A stretch of 64,000 bases of DNA from Escherichia phage 4MG. Below the pieces are notes generated by a model. That model was not told the origin of the DNA and did not search any database. It saw nothing but the letters and a program-made list of their open reading frames with translations. Below are positions 4,846-45,475 of the stretch, in pieces. The stretch lies in sequence record NC_022968.1; one strand, written 5' to 3'. Within the stretch, counting starts at the first letter, position 1, and every line of letters starts with the position of its first letter. A program made the translations under genes and the position numbers.

Positions 4846-5322
4846 ATGAGTAAAACAAAACGCAAACCTACCCAACACATTTCGGTCACTTTGGACTTCC
4901 TGAGAACCGTTCCTGGATTCGATGTGACACAAGAAAGTGGACTCCGCGCTGCCCTTTATGCAGTAGGATTCCAAGTCTCCGACAGTGAGGGTAATCCTAA
5001 GCAAGTAACTATGCTTAACAACAAAAATGTACGATGTGCTAATTTGCCATATTTGTACCGTAAGACCACGATCTTTGTCGGTGACATGCGTCCGGACTAT
5101 CCGTATGCAAAAATTTATAACGGCGTTGACATCCTTGATGTCGGTGTGTATTCAGAGCGCGACATGGAGTTCGTTATCGACTTGCCTTATGACATCCCGG
5201 TAAACGAAAAAGTCAACACCCGTAAGTACACAAAACGCGGTGACCGCCCAGACTCGTTCGATATTACGTTCAATAGTGAAGATGAAGCACGTCTGAGTGA
5301 CGCATTTGGTCTGGGGGACTAA
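4846..5322 (+). CDS. hypothetical protein
   Basis: Track ORF 4792-5322 trimmed to ATG with GGAG RBS; preceded by hairpin CGGGGAGAG-TTT-CTCCCCG. Confidence 0.5.
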   Translation: MSKTKRKPTQHISVTLDFLRTVPGFDVTQESGLRAALYAVGFQVSDSEGNPKQVTMLNNKNVRCANLPYLYRKTTIFVGDMRPDYPYAKIYNGVDILDVGVYSERDMEFVIDLPYDIPVNEKVNTRKYTKRGDRPDSFDITFNSEDEARLSDAFGLGD

Positions 5323-5552
5323 TGAGTAAAGAGAAGACCAAGTGGAAAGACCGTGGCTTTGATGATAAGCATCACTACGCCGGGTGGCTCTACTTCAATG
5401 ATTTGACCGATGACAGTAAGATGTACGATGATGTTTACTATGATCAATATTCTGGTAAAATAATCAATGTCACTGCTCCGTCTGAAGAAACACCTCAAGA
5501 CGAGGAAGTTGACGAAGCCGATAAATATCTTGCTCAATTCGAAGAGAAATAA
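5322..5552 (+). CDS. hypothetical acidic protein
   Basis: ORF; start overlaps upstream stop. Confidence 0.5.
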   Translation: MSKEKTKWKDRGFDDKHHYAGWLYFNDLTDDSKMYDDVYYDQYSGKIINVTAPSEETPQDEEVDEADKYLAQFEEK

Positions 5553-30903: not shown

Positions 30904-31332
30904 ATGATAAAACATTGCCACAATTGCAGTGCCTGTTGTGAAGTTATCGCTATAGACAACATCACACACGAAGACTTCCACGAAAAGATCAGGACCGGAA
31001 GAATATCCGCTATCCACGGGGAGATGATGAAACCAATCTCCAGGGATGAGGCCTACAAACGGAATCCTCTTGTTGTTACAGGTCGTGAGGAAGTTGGTAA
31101 AGGAACAAAACACTTCACCAGCTACTTTACCTGCACAAAGCTGAAAGACAACAAGTGCTCAATGTACGAGGATCGCCCGTACATGTGCAGCGGGTATCCG
31201 TTCTATGACCGGGAGCCTGTTGACACACAATCCCACGCTTCTCTGTGCAAGACACAGCTACGCAGGAAGGACACCCCGTACTCACCAACATGTACGTATG
31301 TCCCAACACTAATCGCGGTCAGAAATATCTAA
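30904..31332 (+). CDS. Cys-cluster protein (YkgJ-like CxxCxxCC)
   Basis: CHNCSACC near N-terminus plus further conserved Cys residues. Confidence 0.45.
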   Translation: MIKHCHNCSACCEVIAIDNITHEDFHEKIRTGRISAIHGEMMKPISRDEAYKRNPLVVTGREEVGKGTKHFTSYFTCTKLKDNKCSMYEDRPYMCSGYPFYDREPVDTQSHASLCKTQLRRKDTPYSPTCTYVPTLIAVRNI

Positions 31333-31356
31333 CCCACACAATAATGGAGCTTAAAG

Positions 31357-31914
31357 GTGACTAAGAAAAGAACAGAACTCAAGTTGTATAGACTAGTTTT
31401 CATGCTGGACCATATCAAAGAGTGCGATGTTGATGAGACTGGGTATTTGATATATCCAACAACAGACAATAAGTTGTACGACATATACATACTTGCTGAA
31501 AATAAAGAAAGTGTCATATTCAGGGCGGGAAGCTCCATAGCGGATCGCCAATCCTATTTTGGGATTGGTAATTTTTGGGGTGATGTAGAGGTCCTGAAAG
31601 TGGAAGAGATCCCCAGTGAAGACTATAAGGAATATATCATCACCGACACCCCTTTTGAAGGGGGTGGATTAAAGGTCTGGTGTTCAGGACCTGGTTATGA
31701 AAAGAGTAAATGGGAAGAGCTATGCGATGTCAAAGAAGGTACTAATATGCTCCGTGTATCAGACCTCAATGCTCACGCCGGGTGTGGTGCAGTACCTGCC
31801 AAAACGATAGAGGCTGCGCTTGAGAGATACAGGCTAGAAAGGGCAGAGCAAGAGCGCAGACACAAGGAGCGGGAGGAACGGAAGCTCAAGAGGCAGGCAA
31901 AGAAAGTAAAGTAA
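31357..31914 (+). CDS. hypothetical protein
   Basis: Lys/Arg/Glu-rich C-terminus; followed by a terminator. Confidence 0.5.
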   Translation: MTKKRTELKLYRLVFMLDHIKECDVDETGYLIYPTTDNKLYDIYILAENKESVIFRAGSSIADRQSYFGIGNFWGDVEVLKVEEIPSEDYKEYIITDTPFEGGGLKVWCSGPGYEKSKWEELCDVKEGTNMLRVSDLNAHAGCGAVPAKTIEAALERYRLERAEQERRHKEREERKLKRQAKKVK

Positions 31915-31925
31915 CACACAACAAG

Positions 31926-31952
31926 GGAGCCTGAAGAGGCTCCTTTTCTTTT
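31926..31952 (+). terminator. rho-independent terminator
   Basis: GGAGCC-TGAAGA-GGCTCC hairpin followed by TTTTCTTTT. Confidence 0.8.
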
Positions 31953-31977
31953 ATCTAAAGTGGCACATCAATTTCCC

Positions 31978-32006
31978 TTGACCTGAAGTGTCCCGTCGAT
32001 TATACT
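31978..32006 (+). promoter_or_regulatory. sigma70-type promoter
   Basis: TTGACC - 17 nt - TATACT, then GAGGAG RBS and ATG at 32037. Confidence 0.7.
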
Positions 32007-32036
32007 CCATCTATCAATTACACGAGGAGAAATTTT

Positions 32037-32150
32037 ATGACTGGACTTGAATTTTTAGTGCTAAGTGCGTGGGTGTGCTTCATGCTGTTCGGAAGCATTG
32101 GCCTGCTTCTGTGGGTATCTGTTGGTCCAGTGGCTAAGAAGGACGAATGA
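32037..32150 (+). CDS. small membrane protein (37 aa)
   Basis: Below track cutoff; strong promoter and RBS; hydrophobic. Confidence 0.4.
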   Translation: MTGLEFLVLSAWVCFMLFGSIGLLLWVSVGPVAKKDE

Positions 32151-32326
32151 TGGAACTGATTATCTTGTGGGGACTGCTGATCCTCTGTGTTGTCCTGATA
32201 GTGCTTGCTATCTGCGCCATCTTCAGCGATGACGATGACGACACGCCTTCCTCCGGCTCAGGCACTGTTGATACCGCTATGCTGATCACCACACAACAGG
32301 CTATGGTTGTCACCATGATTTTATAA
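32150..32326 (+). CDS. small membrane protein (58 aa)
   Basis: TGATG overlap; hydrophobic N-terminus, acidic DDDDD tract. Confidence 0.4.
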   Translation: MELIILWGLLILCVVLIVLAICAIFSDDDDDTPSSGSGTVDTAMLITTQQAMVVTMIL

Positions 32327-32338
32327 GGAGAACACAAC

Positions 32339-32566
32339 ATGTTTATATTCAGCAAAGAAGTGGTCAACACCCTTCTGAAAGAGGCCCACCAGGAATTAAC
32401 AAGGGTTGAGGATGCCCTGCTTGCACTTCACGACAGGGGGTACGGAATGTGCTCTGAAGAGTTCGTTTCCCTGATGGAGTATCGCAGACTGACAAAGAAT
32501 TCCATTGAAGATCTGGAGAAGAAGTTCAAAAGACTTGGGCTGATTGAGGAGATCCTGAAGAAATGA
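32339..32566 (+). CDS. hypothetical protein
   Basis: RBS TAAGGAGAACACAAC. Confidence 0.5.
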   Translation: MFIFSKEVVNTLLKEAHQELTRVEDALLALHDRGYGMCSEEFVSLMEYRRLTKNSIEDLEKKFKRLGLIEEILKK

Positions 32567-32802
32567 AAGAGCACGAGTTCAAAATACGTTTCGACAAAGC
32601 CACAGGTGAGTGGCGTGTATGGGTGAAGGTTCCGTTCCTGTTCTTCTGGACCTGCTGGCAGGTTGTTTTCAAAACCCAGAATGGCATATACGGAAATCCG
32701 TTCTTTGATAGCGAAAGAGACTGCGAGAAAGGCATCGAGAAGTGGAAGCTGGAAAACGCACCGGACTATGAGCGTTACAACACAACCCACCGCAAACTCT
32801 AA
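32563..32802 (+). CDS. hypothetical protein
   Basis: ATGA overlap. Confidence 0.45.
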   Translation: MKEHEFKIRFDKATGEWRVWVKVPFLFFWTCWQVVFKTQNGIYGNPFFDSERDCEKGIEKWKLENAPDYERYNTTHRKL

Positions 32803-32811
32803 GGAGAACAC

Positions 32812-33099
32812 ATGGCTTTCCACAAGGTTGTAAAAGCGCCTGCGAAACGGGCGCATATAAAGAATTACCCACACAAGAAGTCTGAAGCGAGAGACCGAAG
32901 AGTGAAGTGGTTATGGGACTATACAAAATCACTTCTTGGGGTTATCCTCGTAAACAGCGGCTATCATAAGTTTCACTTCTACGAACAATGGAGTGCTGTG
33001 AAAAAAGAGCTTAAAGAACTCGATGCTTACGATGAGCGAAACACCTGGCTCATTATCTCAGATGTTAAGTGGGAGCACAACAGATTTTATCGGTGGTGA
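32812..33099 (+). CDS. hypothetical protein
   Basis: RBS TAAGGAGAACAC; last gene before the non-coding region. Confidence 0.5.
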   Translation: MAFHKVVKAPAKRAHIKNYPHKKSEARDRRVKWLWDYTKSLLGVILVNSGYHKFHFYEQWSAVKKELKELDAYDERNTWLIISDVKWEHNRFYRW

Positions 33100-33112
33100 C
33101 CACACAAAAGGG

Positions 33113-33141
33113 TTGACGTAAACTGTCAGCCCTGTTATAGT
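33113..33141 (+). promoter_or_regulatory. sigma70-type promoter with no ORF downstream
   Basis: TTGACG - 17 nt - TATAGT directly after the last plus-strand gene; no RBS or ORF follows. Confidence 0.55.
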
Positions 33142-34805
33142 CATTATACGCCACATCTCCTGAAGCGGGAGGATACAATCACCAGACCTGCGTGAAAGGT
33201 TGTACACCCTGTTAACATTCTGTCATGTCGATAAAACACCATTTCATAAACATATACCCCACAACATGTCGATGCTATAAACATGTCTGAAGTGACCCAG
33301 CAAATTAGCCGGGGACTAATCGCCTTGCGATATACCCACCCCTCCCCCGCCCGGAGGGAAACGTAAACAGGCCCCTCTCTTTGTGTTTTCTGGCACGAAA
33401 ATATCCTGAAGAGGCAGGGCCTCGAAGACAGGTGTTTCTGGGCGCAATCTCTATGTCTGATGTGTTAGACGGACAATCACAGCCCCTCCGGGTTGTCAAG
33501 GATCTTTACAAAATATCTGAGAGGTCTGACCACGAGACCCTATCGAGTTTTTGGCACGATGATTGCATGATGATTACGTGGCGCAACTAATGATTACAAG
33601 TGCAACTATTAGCAATGTGACAGTTTACACCTGTTACAGCACGATTTGCTCTTGACTTGCTTATATTTGTGTGAATGAGCCTATTTAACATAATACACGT
33701 TATGCGAACCACAGATCACCGGGAGACAGGCCATATAGTCACATATGTTATCATTGCATCAGTGAACCATACCACAAGGCAACCAATAGCCTGCTACATG
33801 TTACCACCACGACAGTTTCACGCTGTTATTATTCATTTTGTGGGGTGTTTTGTCGATGAGAATACAAATGATAATCATTCTGAATACGATTTCGATTTCA
33901 GTTTCGAAATGAAAACCATTCTCAAATGGAAAATATTTTGTAAATCTGCCATAAAAAGCTTGACACAGAGGGAAAAATGTGTTTAGCATTTAAGCCTATC
34001 TTGAGCATCCAACCGCAATGATAATCATTAACGTTAAGCCTTGCTACGCCTGGCTTTAATAGACTTTTCCTATCAATAAAAAGCTTGACAGTTTACACCT
34101 TTTCATGCTCAAGAAAACCGCTTTTCATCGGGCATCTAGCCCGGTTTACAACATGATTAATCATGATTTGTCAATCATTAAACATGATTAAACCGCTTTT
34201 GATCTTCATAACCTGGCGACACAATAACACGAGGGCGATCATGCGATAGCGTGATCGGTGTTATCGTGGCGAGGTTATAAAATACTTCAACTATGCAATA
34301 GTTGCATTATGAATTATTCATTGTTCTAGTCATCTTGTCTGTTAACGCTTAGGCGCTAACGAGCCACGATAACGCGAACGAAAACGATATTTATTATCGT
34401 TTGAGTTACCCTCGTGTTATTGTGTCGCTCGCTCCGCTCGCGCCACTCACCCCGATAACGCGAACGATATTTTTATTTGACAAAAGATGATTACTATGCT
34501 CAAAAAAGACAGTTCACACAAAGGGTTAGATGAGAAAAGTTATCATTTCAGGGCTTTTGCTTCGTATTCACTCAATTTGCATAAAAACACGGTGTTTATT
34601 CACTTGATAACCTGCGTTATCATTTTTGGGGTGTGAGTGAGTCAAAGGCGGGTAATGATACACGATTAAACGCAATATAACGCGTTTTGAGAGGGTTTAT
34701 CTGTTAGGCTTGCCGTTGTATGGCTTCAAAGAGATCTCTTTAAATTCACTTTTTTGCATAAAGACGGGTAAAGATTTAGTGTTTTGTTTGGGGTGTTGGT
34801 ATGAT

Positions 34806-34834
34806 ATGCAAAAAGCCGGGGATTATCCCGGCCT
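34806..34834 (-). terminator. rho-independent terminator (minus strand)
   Basis: Minus-strand hairpin GGCCGGGATAATCCCCGGC followed by TTTTTGCATAT, just after the stop of gene 34853-35062. Confidence 0.7.
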
Positions 34835-34852
34835 TACTTGGTGTGACTTTGA

Positions 34853-35062
34853 TCAGATAAACATTGCAGCATAATGATCGTAAAGGTCTTGCGCTTGTCT
34901 GGCAGGCCAGCGGCTTTCATCCACCGGGACACGTAGATCAATCGGGCGGCGATCTTTCAATCCGTTAACATGAAAAAATGTTTCACCTGTAAGCTGTACG
35001 ATCTCCAGTTTAACGAGGTTGTCAGAATCTTTTACGGTCTGCTGAATGAGAATAGTAGTCAT
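34853..35062 (-). CDS. hypothetical protein
   Basis: Trimmed ORF; minus-strand GTGGAG RBS. Confidence 0.45.
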   Translation of the reverse strand: MTTILIQQTVKDSDNLVKLEIVQLTGETFFHVNGLKDRRPIDLRVPVDESRWPARQAQDLYDHYAAMFI

Positions 35063-35068
35063 TTGCAA

Positions 35069-35434
35069 TTACTCCACAATTGTGATGGTTTGACCTGGTA
35101 ACAGGAAATTCCCGGTTTTATCGTCAAAAATTCCGGTTGCACTTGTTACGGTGACCGTTTCGCCTGATGTCACGATCATAACTTGGGATTCAGTTGGATA
35201 ATCAAAGGTGTAAAGGCGAGGTGTTAACGGCTTGCCGCTTTCTTTCGAATAGTTAACATCATAATCATAAACGGCTTGACATTTGATCGCTACCGTTTCG
35301 GCCTTGTAATAGTGGTTATCATAGCCATAGCCACGCATAAACGGCGCGGATATTTCCAGGACTTCACACAGCGAACCACGAAACAACATATCGCCTTTTT
35401 TCAGGTCTAAAAGGTTGATTTTCTTAAGATCCAT
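35069..35434 (-). CDS. hypothetical protein
   Basis: Leader hairpin plus AGAGGTAAACAAAATG. Confidence 0.5.
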   Translation of the reverse strand: MDLKKINLLDLKKGDMLFRGSLCEVLEISAPFMRGYGYDNHYYKAETVAIKCQAVYDYDVNYSKESGKPLTPRLYTFDYPTESQVMIVTSGETVTVTSATGIFDDKTGNFLLPGQTITIVE

Positions 35435-35457
35435 TTTGTTTACCTCTCAAAGTGTAA

Positions 35458-35474
35458 CGGGGCGACTAGCGCCC
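35458..35474. repeat. GC-rich leader hairpin (family member)
   Basis: GGGGCG-ACTAG-CGCCCC between two minus-strand genes, about 20 nt upstream of the start codon. Confidence 0.6.
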
Positions 35475-35484
35475 CCGATGATTA

Positions 35485-35862
35485 TTACTGATAAGCGGGA
35501 TCGTTGGTGATGTCGATCCAATGAGTTAAATCAATTTTGCCTTTTTCTTTCATTTTCTCGATCAGGCGGTCGGCTAATGTCTCAGAACGAACATAAACAT
35601 TCTCGCTAAAATCCTGGCCTGTTTCATCGTCGATCATTTCGCAATATTCGATTTTACCGATGAAAGCATGATTCAAGGCGTAAGTTTTACCAGTAAACCA
35701 GTTGTGTAAATGAATCTCGCATTTATAATCATCGCTACGGCCTTCAGTAGTCATAACGTCGATCAGATCACCTTTGAAAACTGAAAGATTCCACATGAGA
35801 TCTTTAGTTTTACCGCCAAAATCTTTAGTTTCTACGGTTGAAGCCAGGTTAATGATCGACAT
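35485..35862 (-). CDS. hypothetical protein
   Basis: First gene of a minus-strand unit; RBS AGAGGTAAATCA. Confidence 0.5.
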   Translation of the reverse strand: MSIINLASTVETKDFGGKTKDLMWNLSVFKGDLIDVMTTEGRSDDYKCEIHLHNWFTGKTYALNHAFIGKIEYCEMIDDETGQDFSENVYVRSETLADRLIEKMKEKGKIDLTHWIDITNDPAYQ

Positions 35863-35899
35863 TTGATTTACCTCTTAGTCTGTTTTGTTTGATTTCGTT

Positions 35900-35945
35900 T
35901 GTTTGCCCTACGAGATAAATATTACTATAGGGGGATCAGCACGTC
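35900..35945 (-). promoter_or_regulatory. sigma70-type promoter (minus strand), conserved family
   Basis: Minus-strand TTGACG - 17 nt - TAATAT followed by conserved CGTAGGGC. Confidence 0.5.
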
Positions 35946-36358
35946 AATAGCTCTTTACATAACTTTACACTATTCACTGTTTGCATCTTTATGCATCGCT
36001 ATGCAATTCATTTCATGGTGAAATTACTTTTTAGGCGTTTTTCCGTGTCAAGCTATTTTTATATAGCCTTTAAACGTCCTGTAACGCGTTTTAAGCGGTT
36101 TTGCGTCCAGGCTGTACCCTAGCCCGTTTTAACGGAGATCTCCCCATATTCACTATTTTGCATAGGATTTGAGGGTGTAGTGATAATCATTCTCATCGCC
36201 CAGCGATTAGCCCCCGGCTAACTATCTAAATGATAGTGATTCTCATTACCGGAATAACAGGCACCTCCGGTGGCTTTCCTCCGGTGTCCATCGTTGCCGC
36301 TTCCACAAAAGAATAACAAAAACCGGGACAGAAAACAAGCCCCGGAATTGTAAAGATT

Positions 36359-36676
36359 TTAGCGGATATTTATCCCGGCGGGTAGCCAGTAGCCAGAATA
36401 ATGATCATGAGGTGTGAACCCGTGGGACGGCTTTATATATGTAACTGATAACCATTCTCGATCATCCAGATAAAGCGCCTCATCTATTGCCACCACAAAA
36501 CACAATTCACCTTCACGATCTTTAACGGTTGCGATAGCGTGTTTTTCTATCGCCTTTTCAAGTGCAGCCAGGCCGCGCCGGAATTGTTCCGGGCGTGTGC
36601 GGTAACCTAAGTTATCCTCAGGGCAAAGTCTGTTTAAGGTAGCCCAGCTAACCGCAATCATTTTTTGAAGTGTCAT
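36359..36676 (-). CDS. hypothetical protein
   Basis: Trimmed to ATG with minus-strand AAGAGG RBS. Confidence 0.45.
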   Translation of the reverse strand: MTLQKMIAVSWATLNRLCPEDNLGYRTRPEQFRRGLAALEKAIEKHAIATVKDREGELCFVVAIDEALYLDDREWLSVTYIKPSHGFTPHDHYSGYWLPAGINIR

Positions 36677-36686
36677 TGTCTGCCTC

Positions 36687-37163
36687 TTATCTGTAACGGT
36701 GCATTGATTCACGATAGACCGATCCGCCGTCGAACTTCTCCGCACTTCTCAGGGCGTCCACTAGCTCGCACATTTTGCGGAGTACATACGAACAATGATC
36801 ATTAAAGTCAATGGCTTTTTTAATCATTTCCTCTTTACTCTCCCCATCAATAAAGACAAGTTGATCAAGGGCGTTATAGTGATCAAGCCAGGCGCGGATC
36901 GCGTCATGCTCCAGGGGGCGATCTGTCTGGCTAAAACTTGACAGGCCGAAAGATTCAAAAGTGTTTACATTGTCCATTAATTCATCATAAGCGGTTTCCC
37001 AGCTACTAGCCCAGAACTCAACCGCATCAGATTGAAAATCAGGATCATCAGGGTCAATAAAACAGATTGAAAAAAGTTGCAGGCCTTCACGCTTTGTTAA
37101 GGTATAGCGAGCACTATCAAGGGCGCGTGTTTTGGTGTCTTCTGGGGTGATTTCATATTTCAT
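36687..37163 (-). CDS. hypothetical protein (start uncertain)
   Basis: Track ORF trimmed to internal ATG. Confidence 0.4.
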   Translation of the reverse strand: MKYEITPEDTKTRALDSARYTLTKREGLQLFSICFIDPDDPDFQSDAVEFWASSWETAYDELMDNVNTFESFGLSSFSQTDRPLEHDAIRAWLDHYNALDQLVFIDGESKEEMIKKAIDFNDHCSYVLRKMCELVDALRSAEKFDGGSVYRESMHRYR

Positions 37164-37305
37164 TCTTTGATACCTATAAACGGAAAATGTGAGAGATCTG
37201 CGGGGCGTAAGTGTTGACTTTGAACCCATTCACCAGACATCAGAGCCAGGACACGGGAACCGCGCCAGCGGTAGCGATTCCCATTCAAAAGGTTAACGTA
37301 AATGA

Positions 37306-37533
37306 TCATGCGCCGTAAAGACCATCACTATTAAAATCATCCTCAAAAGAGGCCAAGTATTCGAAAAATTCAAACTCCATCGCGACAACATGTTTAACCA
37401 AATCAGCATTTTTGTATTCAGCCGGGGACAGGCGGATCGGCGCGTCACTATATAGATCCGTAAGTTCGATGTATTCCCCGACCTTTTGAGCGGTTACCGT
37501 GTTTTTCTTGTTGTCGAAAATTACTTGTTTCAT
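37306..37533 (-). CDS. hypothetical protein
   Basis: ORF with ATGA overlap to upstream gene. Confidence 0.45.
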   Translation of the reverse strand: MKQVIFDNKKNTVTAQKVGEYIELTDLYSDAPIRLSPAEYKNADLVKHVVAMEFEFFEYLASFEDDFNSDGLYGA

Positions 37534-37754
37534 GATATACGCTCAATAATAATGATTGCTTGCGGGATAGAATCAGGAGTAACGATCAGGGCTTTTGATT
37601 GACGAATTTTAAAGCCTAGTTTCGCTTTGCACACCGTGGCGGTCATTTTCCGCATTTCAGGATCTACGTTTGCACCTTCACAGAACCATACAGCCTTTTC
37701 ACCTGCGATAAGGTTGCGTAAAAATTCAGTTTGCCCGGTTTGATTCTTTAACAT
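37530..37754 (-). CDS. hypothetical protein
   Basis: Leader hairpin plus GAAAGGTAAACGAAATG. Confidence 0.5.
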   Translation of the reverse strand: MLKNQTGQTEFLRNLIAGEKAVWFCEGANVDPEMRKMTATVCKAKLGFKIRQSKALIVTPDSIPQAIIIIERIS

Positions 37755-37775
37755 TTCGTTTACCTTTCAAAGTAT

Positions 37776-37794
37776 GCCGGGGACGTTCCCCGGC
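37776..37794. repeat. GC-rich leader hairpin (family member)
   Basis: GCCGGGGA-CGT-TCCCCGGC, 8-bp stem and 3-nt loop. Confidence 0.65.
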
Positions 37795-37801
37795 TTGCTG
37801 A

Positions 37802-38062
37802 TTAGATTGATTTTTCGATATCGGCTAAAATCTCTTTTGCAAGAGTATAGTTTACATTCAGATCCCGCGCTATGTCTTCGGCTAACAGTTTACGACCTAC
37901 GTTACCGAAACTTAACATTCTTTTAACTTCTGGTAACCCTTTGCCCCAATAGTTATAGCAGGAATCACCGATATATTTTGAGTAAAACGCGTTATCGTTG
38001 CGAACTCCACCTAAAACAGCGACATTAACAGAGATAACGTGTTTAAAATTGTGCTTTTCCAT
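37802..38062 (-). CDS. hypothetical protein
   Basis: Leader hairpin plus AAAAGGTAAACAAAATG. Confidence 0.5.
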   Translation of the reverse strand: MEKHNFKHVISVNVAVLGGVRNDNAFYSKYIGDSCYNYWGKGLPEVKRMLSFGNVGRKLLAEDIARDLNVNYTLAKEILADIEKSI

Positions 38063-45149: not shown

Positions 45150-45475
45150 TATCAGACAGAAGAGAAAACGCCACTCCACGGCGAAAAGGCGGGGCTAACG
45201 TACCGGGCGCGGGTGCCAGGTCGGAAGGTGGATCGCCGGTAGTTCGTCTGAATGACATTTGTAAAGATTTGTAAAGATGGTTGATCCTGGGGTTGGTTCT
45301 GCTATTATTATCACATAGCGGGAACATTGAAACCGGAGTACAAAACACCGGGGGTGCCTGTCATTCTGCAAATGATAATGATTATCATTCAACAAGCTAA
45401 ATGAGAATGCTTCTCATTCCGCATAAAAATTTATCTTGACATCGAGTGTGCTTGTGTGAGAAAATTATTGATCCC

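Follow-up and report, generated by a model that had tools for sequence, protein, structure and literature searches.

Strand-specific hairpin clusters of about 100–200 nt that are active only as folded single strands are known from the ColE1 pas and from the complementary-strand origin of phage G4; the stems flanking ribosomal RNA (rRNA) are RNase III processing stems, and the Rep-binding element of adeno-associated virus (AAV) is (GCTC)n. The recognition, copying and cutting of short direct terminal repeats are poorly understood outside phage T7, for which a hairpin end of the concatemer is, in the account of the papers that cite the original work, the accepted model (Chung, Nardone and Hinkle 1990, J Mol Biol 216:939, as cited in PMC4925675 and PMC4281155). 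A further system at a terminal-repeat boundary is the injection stop signal of phage T5 (Davison, bioRxiv 10.1101/866236). We compare with these systems a long inverted repeat at positions 34216–34428 of a 64,000-nt stretch of Escherichia phage 4MG (NC_022968.1; hereafter the window). The repeat forms the stem P1 that closes a four-way junction of about 213 nt, conserved and present in one copy, with the helices P1–P4. The junction is a new structured-element family and acts through intrastrand folding of the + strand. The most informative part of its context, which an earlier prediction from the same sequence had not seen, is a distance of ~230 bp to a predicted direct terminal repeat. Several rV5/PVP-SE1-like phages are phage-therapy candidates.

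The two arms of the outer repeat, GCGACACAATAACACGAGGG (34216–34235) and CCCTCGTGTTATTGTGTCGC (34409–34428), are 20 nt long, 100% complementary and separated by 173 nt. The original prediction had proposed a perfect long-range inverted repeat here, and the exact complementarity is borne out; the arm length of 19 nt that it gave is one short, and its positions are 1–2 nt off. Among repeats with arms no more than 300 nt apart, this is the longest perfect inverted repeat in the window (the runner-up has 12 nt), and the longest found in 40 dinucleotide shuffles has 15 nt. RNA folding of the + strand of 34200–34445 (246 nt) yields −105.4 kcal/mol, against −62.1 ± 4.2 kcal/mol for shuffled sequences (z = −10.25), and the predicted structure is a single-strand fold in which a long stem encloses a structured core; the − strand of the same segment reaches −93.2 kcal/mol (z = −8.1). 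Given the length of the repeat relative to the rest of the 64 kb and to the shuffles, and the fold z-score, a chance origin is excluded. A sliding fold scan further identified the element as the sole strongly structured spot within a gap of ~2 kb that is free of open reading frames (ORFs). The fold resolves into the following parts:

34216–34235, + strand: 5′ arm of P1, GCGACACAATAACACGAGGG, which forms 20 perfect base pairs with 34409–34428
34236–34257, + strand: P2 hairpin, CGATCATGC-GATA-GCGTGATCG, 9 bp including one U·G pair, closed by a GAUA loop
34258–34270, + strand: 5′ strand of the P3 base, GTGTTATCGTGGC, which pairs with 34363–34375 over 13 bp including one U·G pair
34271–34362, + strand: P3 interior of 92 nt, 34% GC, hypervariable, with small local hairpins
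34363–34375, + strand: 3′ strand of the P3 base, GCCACGATAACGC, which begins the invariant block GCCACGATAACGCGAACGA
34376, + strand: junction base G
34377–34407, + strand: P4 hairpin, composed of AAC/GTT, then an invariant tandem G·A/A·G internal loop, then a covarying stem of 8–9 bp
34408, + strand: junction base A
34409–34428, + strand: 3′ arm of P1, CCCTCGTGTTATTGTGTCGC
34427–34444, + strand: invariant G+C-rich 3′ tail, GCTCGCTCCGCTCGCGCC, with two GCTCGC units
34450–34469, + strand: junction sequence repeated in direct orientation, CCCCGATAACGCGAACGATA, 86 nt past the first copy
34377–34389 / 34395–34407 (P4) and 34282–34294 / 34298–34310: two imperfect hairpins (85% each), the nearest approach to a 17-bp palindrome that had been proposed within the repeat and has no exact counterpart

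The junction holds almost no unpaired bases. Its P3 base contains the inner inverted pair GTTATCGTGGC / GCCACGATAAC (34260–34270 / 34363–34373) that had been noticed earlier, and which extends to 13 bp with one U·G pair. The sequence GATAACGCGAAC occurs exactly twice in the 64-kb window, and the core CGAT(A/T/C)ACGC is present in three invariant copies, one inverted and two direct. As regards an iteron-type origin, CGATAACGC is likewise found in two direct copies and one inverted copy beside the interior of 34% GC, with variable, unphased spacing.

The source phage is a Seunavirus-like myophage of the Vequintavirinae, the subfamily to which its Seunavirus and Mydovirus relatives belong as well. 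The region is ~90% identical to that of Cronobacter phage GAP31 and 76–82% identical to those of the PVP-SE1-type Salmonella phages (Seunavirus) and of Klebsiella, Raoultella and Proteus phages (Mydovirus); an IMG/VR contig of 148,567 bp matches the element exactly. We assembled 22 distinct full-length homologs, drawn from Seunavirus, Mydovirus, Henunavirus and, in one case, a metagenomic contig, and when folded separately each of the 22 gives the same P1–P4 junction, which is thus kept in three genera. Base pairs were counted on a deliberately conservative MAFFT alignment, in which GAAA stands in for the P3 interior and the register of the two Erwinia sequences is partly off, rather than on the covariance-model alignment, since the latter contained mixed strands and partial matches. 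On this alignment 95.2% of the cells pair, as against 25–49% when the partners are slid by 1–3 columns, and 15 pairs are changed on both sides, as against 7.0 ± 1.5 in shuffles. The covariation score of 0.169 (0.065 for shuffles) was reached by none of 500 shuffles. The compensatory changes that the original prediction named as a way of checking the fold are thus present in related phages, with the caveat that template switching between the arms of an inverted repeat can also produce such changes.

The individual helices differ in how this variation is distributed. P1 occurs in 18 sequence variants, all of 18–22 bp and 16 of them perfectly paired, with compensatory switches such as CACAATAAC/GTTATTGTG to CACTATAAC/GTTATAGTG, GAGGG/CCCTC to GAGAG/CTCTC and GGGAG/CTCCC, and CACGAGGG/CCCTCGTG to CACTAGGG/CCCTAGTG; in the Erwinia phages its sequence is unlike the others (CCACCTATAAACGCTGATAG / CTATCAGCGTTTATAGGTGG), yet it remains a perfect repeat of 21–22 bp (22 bp in Hena1). 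All 11 variants of P2 fold (e.g., CGATCA/TGATCG to CGATTA/TAATCG), and their loops are mostly G-N-N-A, with GAAA or GCAA in Henunavirus. P4 is paired in all 10 of its variants, which include the series ACGATA/TATCGT, ATGATA/TATCAT, ATGCGA/TCGCAT and ATCAAAAC/GTTTTGAT. Insertions of ~50–55 nt are confined to loops: the P4 loop tolerates one of 55 nt in Mydo and NDO71, and the P3 interior, which ranges from 73 to 144 nt in the relatives, carries one in LNA4. The P3 base shows the opposite behaviour: its 5′ strand is invariant in 20 of the 22 homologs, the U·G pair becoming C-G in Henunavirus, and its 3′ strand varies in none, Hena1 included, so that the evidence for P3 pairing consists of the repeat itself and of the one U·G to C-G change. 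Also invariant are the block GCCACGATAACGCGAACGA, the tandem G·A loop and the GCTCGC tail; the whole tail GCTCGCTCCGCTCGCGCC is kept across three genera with only 1–2 variable positions. In the second junction copy the core CGCGAAC is present in every relative examined, the bases ahead of it vary slightly, and CGCGAACGA is kept in all relatives examined except two Henunavirus phages. The invariance of the junction, the tandem G·A loop and the tail implies purifying selection. As an aside, every variant of P2 keeps a GATC, which shifts into the loop when the stem mutates; we gave no weight to a Dam-site explanation because GATC is common genome-wide, with 384 occurrences in the window versus 269 ± 15 in shuffles. 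The over-representation extends over the whole window, and Dam sites are thus not avoided by the phage.

A covariance model built from the helices recovers the element once in the window (127.9 bits) and once in each relative, with no change of locus. This bears on the idea that the repeat is a selfish or neutral palindrome, i.e., a miniature transposon remnant or a quasi-palindrome kept by template switching with no function for the phage. The perfect 20-nt terminal inverted repeats, the fact that homology to the more distant relatives begins exactly at the left arm, and the small hairpin cassettes that move about in the relatives' gap (see below) would all suit such an origin. Nonetheless, of the hallmarks of a miniature inverted-repeat transposable element or insertion-sequence remnant only the terminal inverted repeats were found: dispersed copies are absent, there is no target-site duplication (the flanks are AACCTG and TCGCTC), and locus, orientation and architecture are constant in three genera, with the invariant parts implying purifying selection. 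We therefore give this explanation hardly any credence.

The covariance model found no match above 8 bits in FV3, an rV5-like Vequintavirus, in which a long inverted repeat was also not found. FV3 has the same 2.3-kb ORF-free stretch between convergent gene clusters and a homologous primase-helicase. Since the gap is thus present there without the element, the latter is specific to the Seunavirus-Mydovirus-Henunavirus branch, and its absence from FV3 suggests an accessory element rather than a core part of replication or packaging. A cmscan search against Rfam 15 returned no family match for 31000–38000 (E ≤ 1) or 34190–34480 (E ≤ 10), the matches being chance microRNA ones only, at 21.3 and 13.7 bits and far under the gathering scores. 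Likewise, no described counterpart was found in the literature searched.

The pairing also carries a strand preference. G·U pairs of the + strand are found at three sites, namely in P3 in 20 of the 22 sequences, in P4 in 7 or 8 and in P2 in 3, while an A·C mismatch, which would correspond to G·U on the − strand, is found only once; moreover, in 22/22 homologs folding of the + strand gives the lower energy, by a mean of 11.5 kcal/mol. From the wobble bias and the fold energies we conclude that the active form of the element is the + strand, folded on itself as a single strand. This bias applies to RNA and to single-stranded DNA alike, being expected of a primosome-type DNA site and of an RNA alike, and computation cannot separate the two. 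Of the cruciform or RNA stem-loop envisaged in the original prediction, the intrastrand fold is strongly supported, whereas a cruciform extruded from intact duplex DNA is its least likely form, both because the wobble pairs are strand-specific and because an interior of three hairpins and a 92-nt AT-rich loop would require the unwinding of ~210 bp. The functions it listed (origin, resolution site or structured RNA) are candidates only.

The same observations bear on whether the symmetry is simply that of a dimer or oligomer (e.g., of the small terminase subunit, an initiator or a repressor) bound to ordinary sites on duplex DNA, with no folding at all. The three unvarying copies of CGAT(A/T/C)ACGC, one inverted and two direct, would be natural for such sites, as would Fur-box-like palindromes nearby, which make the region rich in candidate protein sites. 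However, P1, P2 and P4 vary freely among close relatives and always on both arms, the P1 of Hena1 shares little sequence with that of the window and is still a perfect repeat, the arms of P3 are spaced by 73–144 nt without helical phasing, and the wobble asymmetry would be meaningless for duplex sites. Hence, we regard this account as quite improbable, and plain protein-binding repeats join chance, a transposon remnant and a terminator (see below) among the disfavoured explanations.

The genomic position of the element is conserved, too. In the window, as in every Seunavirus and Mydovirus relative examined, it sits in an ORF-free gap of 1.5–2.3 kb on which a long cluster of + strand genes and a long cluster of − strand genes converge; in Erwinia phage pEp_SNUABM_01 the flanking genes on both sides are on the − strand. 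In the rV5 paper the gap appears only as a ‘non-coding’ box, with the remark that a search for the terminators to be expected where the units converge found none (PMC3606486). Several database records begin or finish within ~1 kb of the element. The record of Hena1 terminates at its terminal repeat, an annotated direct repeat of 519 bp, and for KPP-1 a repeat of 514 bp was derived from doubled read coverage and PhageTerm, with packaging reported as T7-type (PMC9862379). In both phages the left terminus maps between TTA and GACGGACA, at window position 33468, and the right boundary between TGTGTT and TAGCA, at 33984/33985. As the genome ends of two relatives, determined independently, thus fall on identical motifs, we predict a terminal repeat in the window:

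33468–33984, strandless: predicted direct terminal repeat of 517 bp, by homology to Hena1 and KPP-1

The element starts 231 nt to the right of this predicted repeat, as compared to 308 nt in KPP-1 and 260 nt in Hena1, and always on the same side. The gap has thereby gained an anatomy, with exact predicted termini, a terminal repeat, and a covariation-supported element with defined helices and invariant motifs. Separately, the two boundaries resemble each other (ATGTGTTA/GACGG at 33467/33468 on the left and ATGTGTT/TAGCA at 33984/33985 on the right), and the shared motif could be the terminase cutting site; the left version, CTAGACGGACA, is kept in KPP-1 and Hena1, and the gap of FV3 has TCTAGACGTCC.

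We favour, with a probability of about 0.4, a reading in which a structured non-coding RNA of + polarity has the element as its core. Such an RNA would be read rightward out of the boundary region of the terminal repeat, and the following signals of the gap are relevant to it:

33113–33141, + strand: strongest sigma-70-like site in this region (10/12 matches), TTGACG-17-TATAGT plus a TG upstream, just past the last + strand gene
33960–33989, + strand: sigma-70-like site TTGACA-N18-TAGCAT (10/12 matches), astride the right boundary of the repeat and directed toward the element
34076–34090, + strand: second copy of ATAAAAAGCTTGACA, then GTTTACAC...CATGCTCAA, a conserved box 130 nt upstream of P1
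34477–34500, + strand: TTGACA-N12-TATGCT box just past the element, kept in Seunavirus and Mydovirus
34815–34832, − strand: hairpin GCCGGGGATTATCCCGGC, the terminator of the − strand cluster and right border of the non-coding region

Transcription might begin at the TTGACA boxes at 33960 and 34085, or might reach the element by read-through from the promoter-like site at 33113, which points into the terminal repeat and has a homologous TTGACG-17-TACTAT in PVP-SE1; a scan of 32800–35300 called no terminator-like site, and thus none between 33113 and the element. Conservation of CTTGACAGTTTAC in the box at 34076–34090 reaches Hena1. The perfect 18–22 bp of P1 would insulate the fold, and their length and regularity would suffice for an RNase III processing stem. 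In this respect P1 resembles the stems flanking rRNA, with a long-range, near-perfect duplex of ~20 bp enclosing a structured RNA and a stem sequence that is free to vary as long as the pairing stays; it differs from the RNase III sites of T7 early mRNA, which are simple hairpins with internal loops between genes, and its own transcription and cleavage are only proposed. The uninterrupted duplex of ~20 bp that such a stem calls for is found in nearly all P1 variants. The peripheral parts (P2, distal P4 and the P3 interior) would be free to vary, and a phage or host factor would recognise the invariant surface formed by the P3 base, the junction GCCACGAUAACGCGAACGA, the tandem G·A loop, the GCUCGC tail and the second CGCGAACGA copy. 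What has been observed is the fold with its conservation, covariation and strand bias, its occurrence as a single copy and its position by the terminal repeat; the transcription, processing and binding of the element are inferred. RNA-like details include the G-N-N-A loops, GAAA and GCAA among them, and the invariant tandem G·A loop, and the restriction of insertions to loops of the periphery suits an RNA as well; an RNA would also be the simplest outcome of any rightward transcription, and the lack of the element in FV3, despite homologous core machinery, fits an RNA. If it is an RNA, it would be a new large structured phage RNA without an Rfam relative.

Several observations weigh against an RNA. 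The second hexamer of the 33960 site is unconserved (TAGCAA in KPP-1 and TAGCAC in Hena1), the TTGACA boxes at 34085 and 34477 lie 12–14 nt from (C/T)ATGCT, a non-canonical spacing for a promoter, and promoter-like matches in the gap are no commoner than in shuffles; canonical promoters upstream of the element in the relatives were rejected as candidates on the same grounds, the matches being no commoner than in shuffles and unconserved in position. In the PVP-SE1-type phages a terminator-like hairpin stands directly upstream of P1, and after the element there is no convincing terminator, the best candidate having −8.1 kcal/mol (z = −0.24). The literature searched yielded no transcript data for these phages. 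The never-varying 13-bp helix, of which there is a third, direct sequence copy, is unusual for an RNA and more like a protein-DNA site; P1 is almost free of G·U pairs; and next to a terminal repeat one would expect sites that act in cis as DNA. Finally, compensatory change suits single-stranded DNA as well as RNA, template switching being a further possible source.

These points lead to a cis-acting DNA element of the genome end, in which the opened + strand of the DNA itself would fold into the junction, an alternative that we consider somewhat less likely than an RNA. The strand would be opened either by an R-loop from rightward transcription or by a rightward fork that makes the + strand the lagging template, and the folded strand would then act as a single-strand initiation or primosome-assembly site, as do the ColE1 pas and the G4 origin, or, by analogy with the T7 proposal, as a hairpin intermediate through which the terminal repeat is duplicated. 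Formed from a single strand, the unvarying P3 helix would present the duplex sequence of the direct copy (34450–34469), so that one DNA-binding protein could read both. Beyond the constant placement beside a terminal repeat whose packaging is reported as T7-type (PMC9862379), this reading accommodates a P1 that is nearly always perfectly Watson-Crick paired, the invariance of P3 and of the repeated CGATAACGCGAACGA, the AT-rich interior and the missing canonical promoter and terminator signals of an RNA gene; the strand bias, too, agrees with the + strand being the non-template strand of the rightward TTGACA boxes. On the other hand, the gap, a similar TCTAGACG motif and homologous replication proteins are all present in FV3, but the element is not; no hairpin would be needed to duplicate the repeat if the two GTGTT(T)AG boundaries were nicked in staggered fashion; the strand laid bare at this end by resection or by incomplete replication would be the − and not the + strand; and there are no DnaA boxes (TTWTNCACA) between 33006 and 39376, the 64 kb as a whole having 9 versus 7.5 expected. 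If it is DNA that folds, the element would be one of the rare cases in which sequence comparison speaks for a functional fold of the DNA in a phage with a duplex genome.

The comparison with T7 is apt in that a short direct terminal repeat, here predicted by homology, has an inverted repeat within a few hundred bases of it in the non-coding DNA, that T7-type packaging is reported for a relative, and that the T7 repeat is proposed to fold back in concatemer processing. The present element differs in that its T7 counterpart has imperfect arms and is not known to form a conserved four-way junction, in that hairpin-ended DNA is part of the T7 model whereas the element is known from sequence alone, and in that FV3 does without it. 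The ColE1 pas and G4 origin resemble the element as strand-specific clusters of hairpins downstream of a promoter-like region, on the strand that transcription would displace; these sites, however, are defined by functional assays, and the element-bearing phages encode their own primase-helicase. Seunaviruses are said to lack a primase (PMC4309531), and a hairpin that recruits the host primase was among the candidates we tried; it was rejected, as the Mydovirus NDO71 (55% identity) and a Henunavirus phage carry both the element and a primase-helicase. The T5 injection stop signal resembles the locus in being a large conserved untranslated region at a terminal-repeat boundary, dense in inverted repeats and palindromes, that is conserved while neighbouring genes are not; it differs in that it is defined by paired DnaA boxes, of which this gap has none, and in that its repeats are kilobases apart rather than a compact junction. 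As in the inverted terminal repeats of parvoviruses and AAV, a long stem around small palindromes forms a branched hairpin with GCTC-type repeats, here in the GCTCGCTCCGCTCGC tail. In contrast to them, the element is ~750 nt from the genome end and not at it, its GCTC repeat is outside the stem, and the genome is 148 kb of duplex DNA; the resemblance to AAV may be coincidental.

A more specific proposal along the same lines is that the folded + strand beside the terminal repeat is a DNA device, on which a protein reading the P3 helix and the GCTCGC repeats starts replication or copies the repeat by hairpin priming. We consider this unlikely; if true, it would be a large-myovirus counterpart of the rolling-hairpin or T7 hairpin-end chemistry and the first conserved, covariation-supported DNA secondary structure tied to the processing of tailed-phage terminal repeats.

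Finally, a position between convergent + and − strand clusters and a very stable fold on both strands invite the view that the element is a transcription barrier or terminator that keeps the two clusters apart and shields the terminal repeat from read-through. It is nevertheless very improbable: no U-tract follows P1 on either strand (TCGCTCC follows on the + strand and CAGGTTA on the − strand), the terminator scan called none, the − strand cluster owns the terminator at 34815–34832, and for termination alone a four-way junction with unvarying motifs at its flanks would be superfluous. The counterpart of the 34815–34832 hairpin scores as a terminator in KPP-1 and Hena1, and one is annotated correspondingly in PVP-SE1. 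Protein coding within the gap was also considered. The + strand ORF at 34487–34636 is not coding, since relatives carry 1-nt indels that break its frame, and the ORF at 33675–33986 inside the repeat was rejected, its annotation being inconsistent among relatives.

Further small motifs accompany the A-tract and TTGACA boxes: ATGCTCAAGA occurs in three copies (34000–34008 on the − strand, 34105–34114 and 34496–34508 on the + strand), and GACAGTT(T/C)ACAC in two (34084–34098 and 34508–34519). The spacing of 12–14 nt between TTGACA and (C/T)ATGCT is wrong for sigma-70 and calls to mind the middle promoters of T4, which depend on an activator. In KPP-1 and PVP-SE1 the motif, when read on the − strand, supplies the T-tract of hairpins that resemble terminators.

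An exact 13-nt palindrome, AATGATAATCATT, which we take to be the core of the Escherichia coli Fur-box consensus, lies at 33867–33879 inside the terminal repeat and at 34017–34029 just outside it, with a further site at 45371–45389. Exact copies are found in the same gap of GAP31, KE22, Ro1, FENT2, KP12, EC152, LNA4, BIS47 and one metagenomic contig; judged by this motif, the region may be linked to host iron regulation. The mobile-looking cassette mentioned above is ~40–55 nt long and consists of three mini-hairpins (CCCGn4-5CGGG, TTAGC..GCTAA and TCGC..GCGA). It is absent from the 64-kb window and stands at varied places in the gaps of relatives, on the + strand in four and on the − strand in five, its sites including the P4 loop (Mydo and NDO71), the tip of P3 (LNA4) and the position directly 5′ of P1 (FENT2); the cassette has the look of a very small hairpin module that moves or duplicates.

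Downstream of the element there are further small conserved hairpins or palindromes at 34603–34628, 34670–34692 and 34726–34739. These comprise a hairpin TTGATAAC-CTGC-GTTATCA that is followed by TTTTT and covaries to TTAATAAC/GTTATTAA in Mydovirus, a hairpin AAACGC-N8-GCGTTTT that likewise covaries, and the perfect 14-nt palindrome AAAGAGATCTCTTT. The first − strand gene beside the gap (34853–35140) differs from that of the 90%-identical GAP31 (5157–5423); by contrast, Mydovirus and Henunavirus conserve an 87-aa membrane-like protein beside the gap, and Vequintavirus and Justusliebigvirus conserve it at a place deeper in the cluster.

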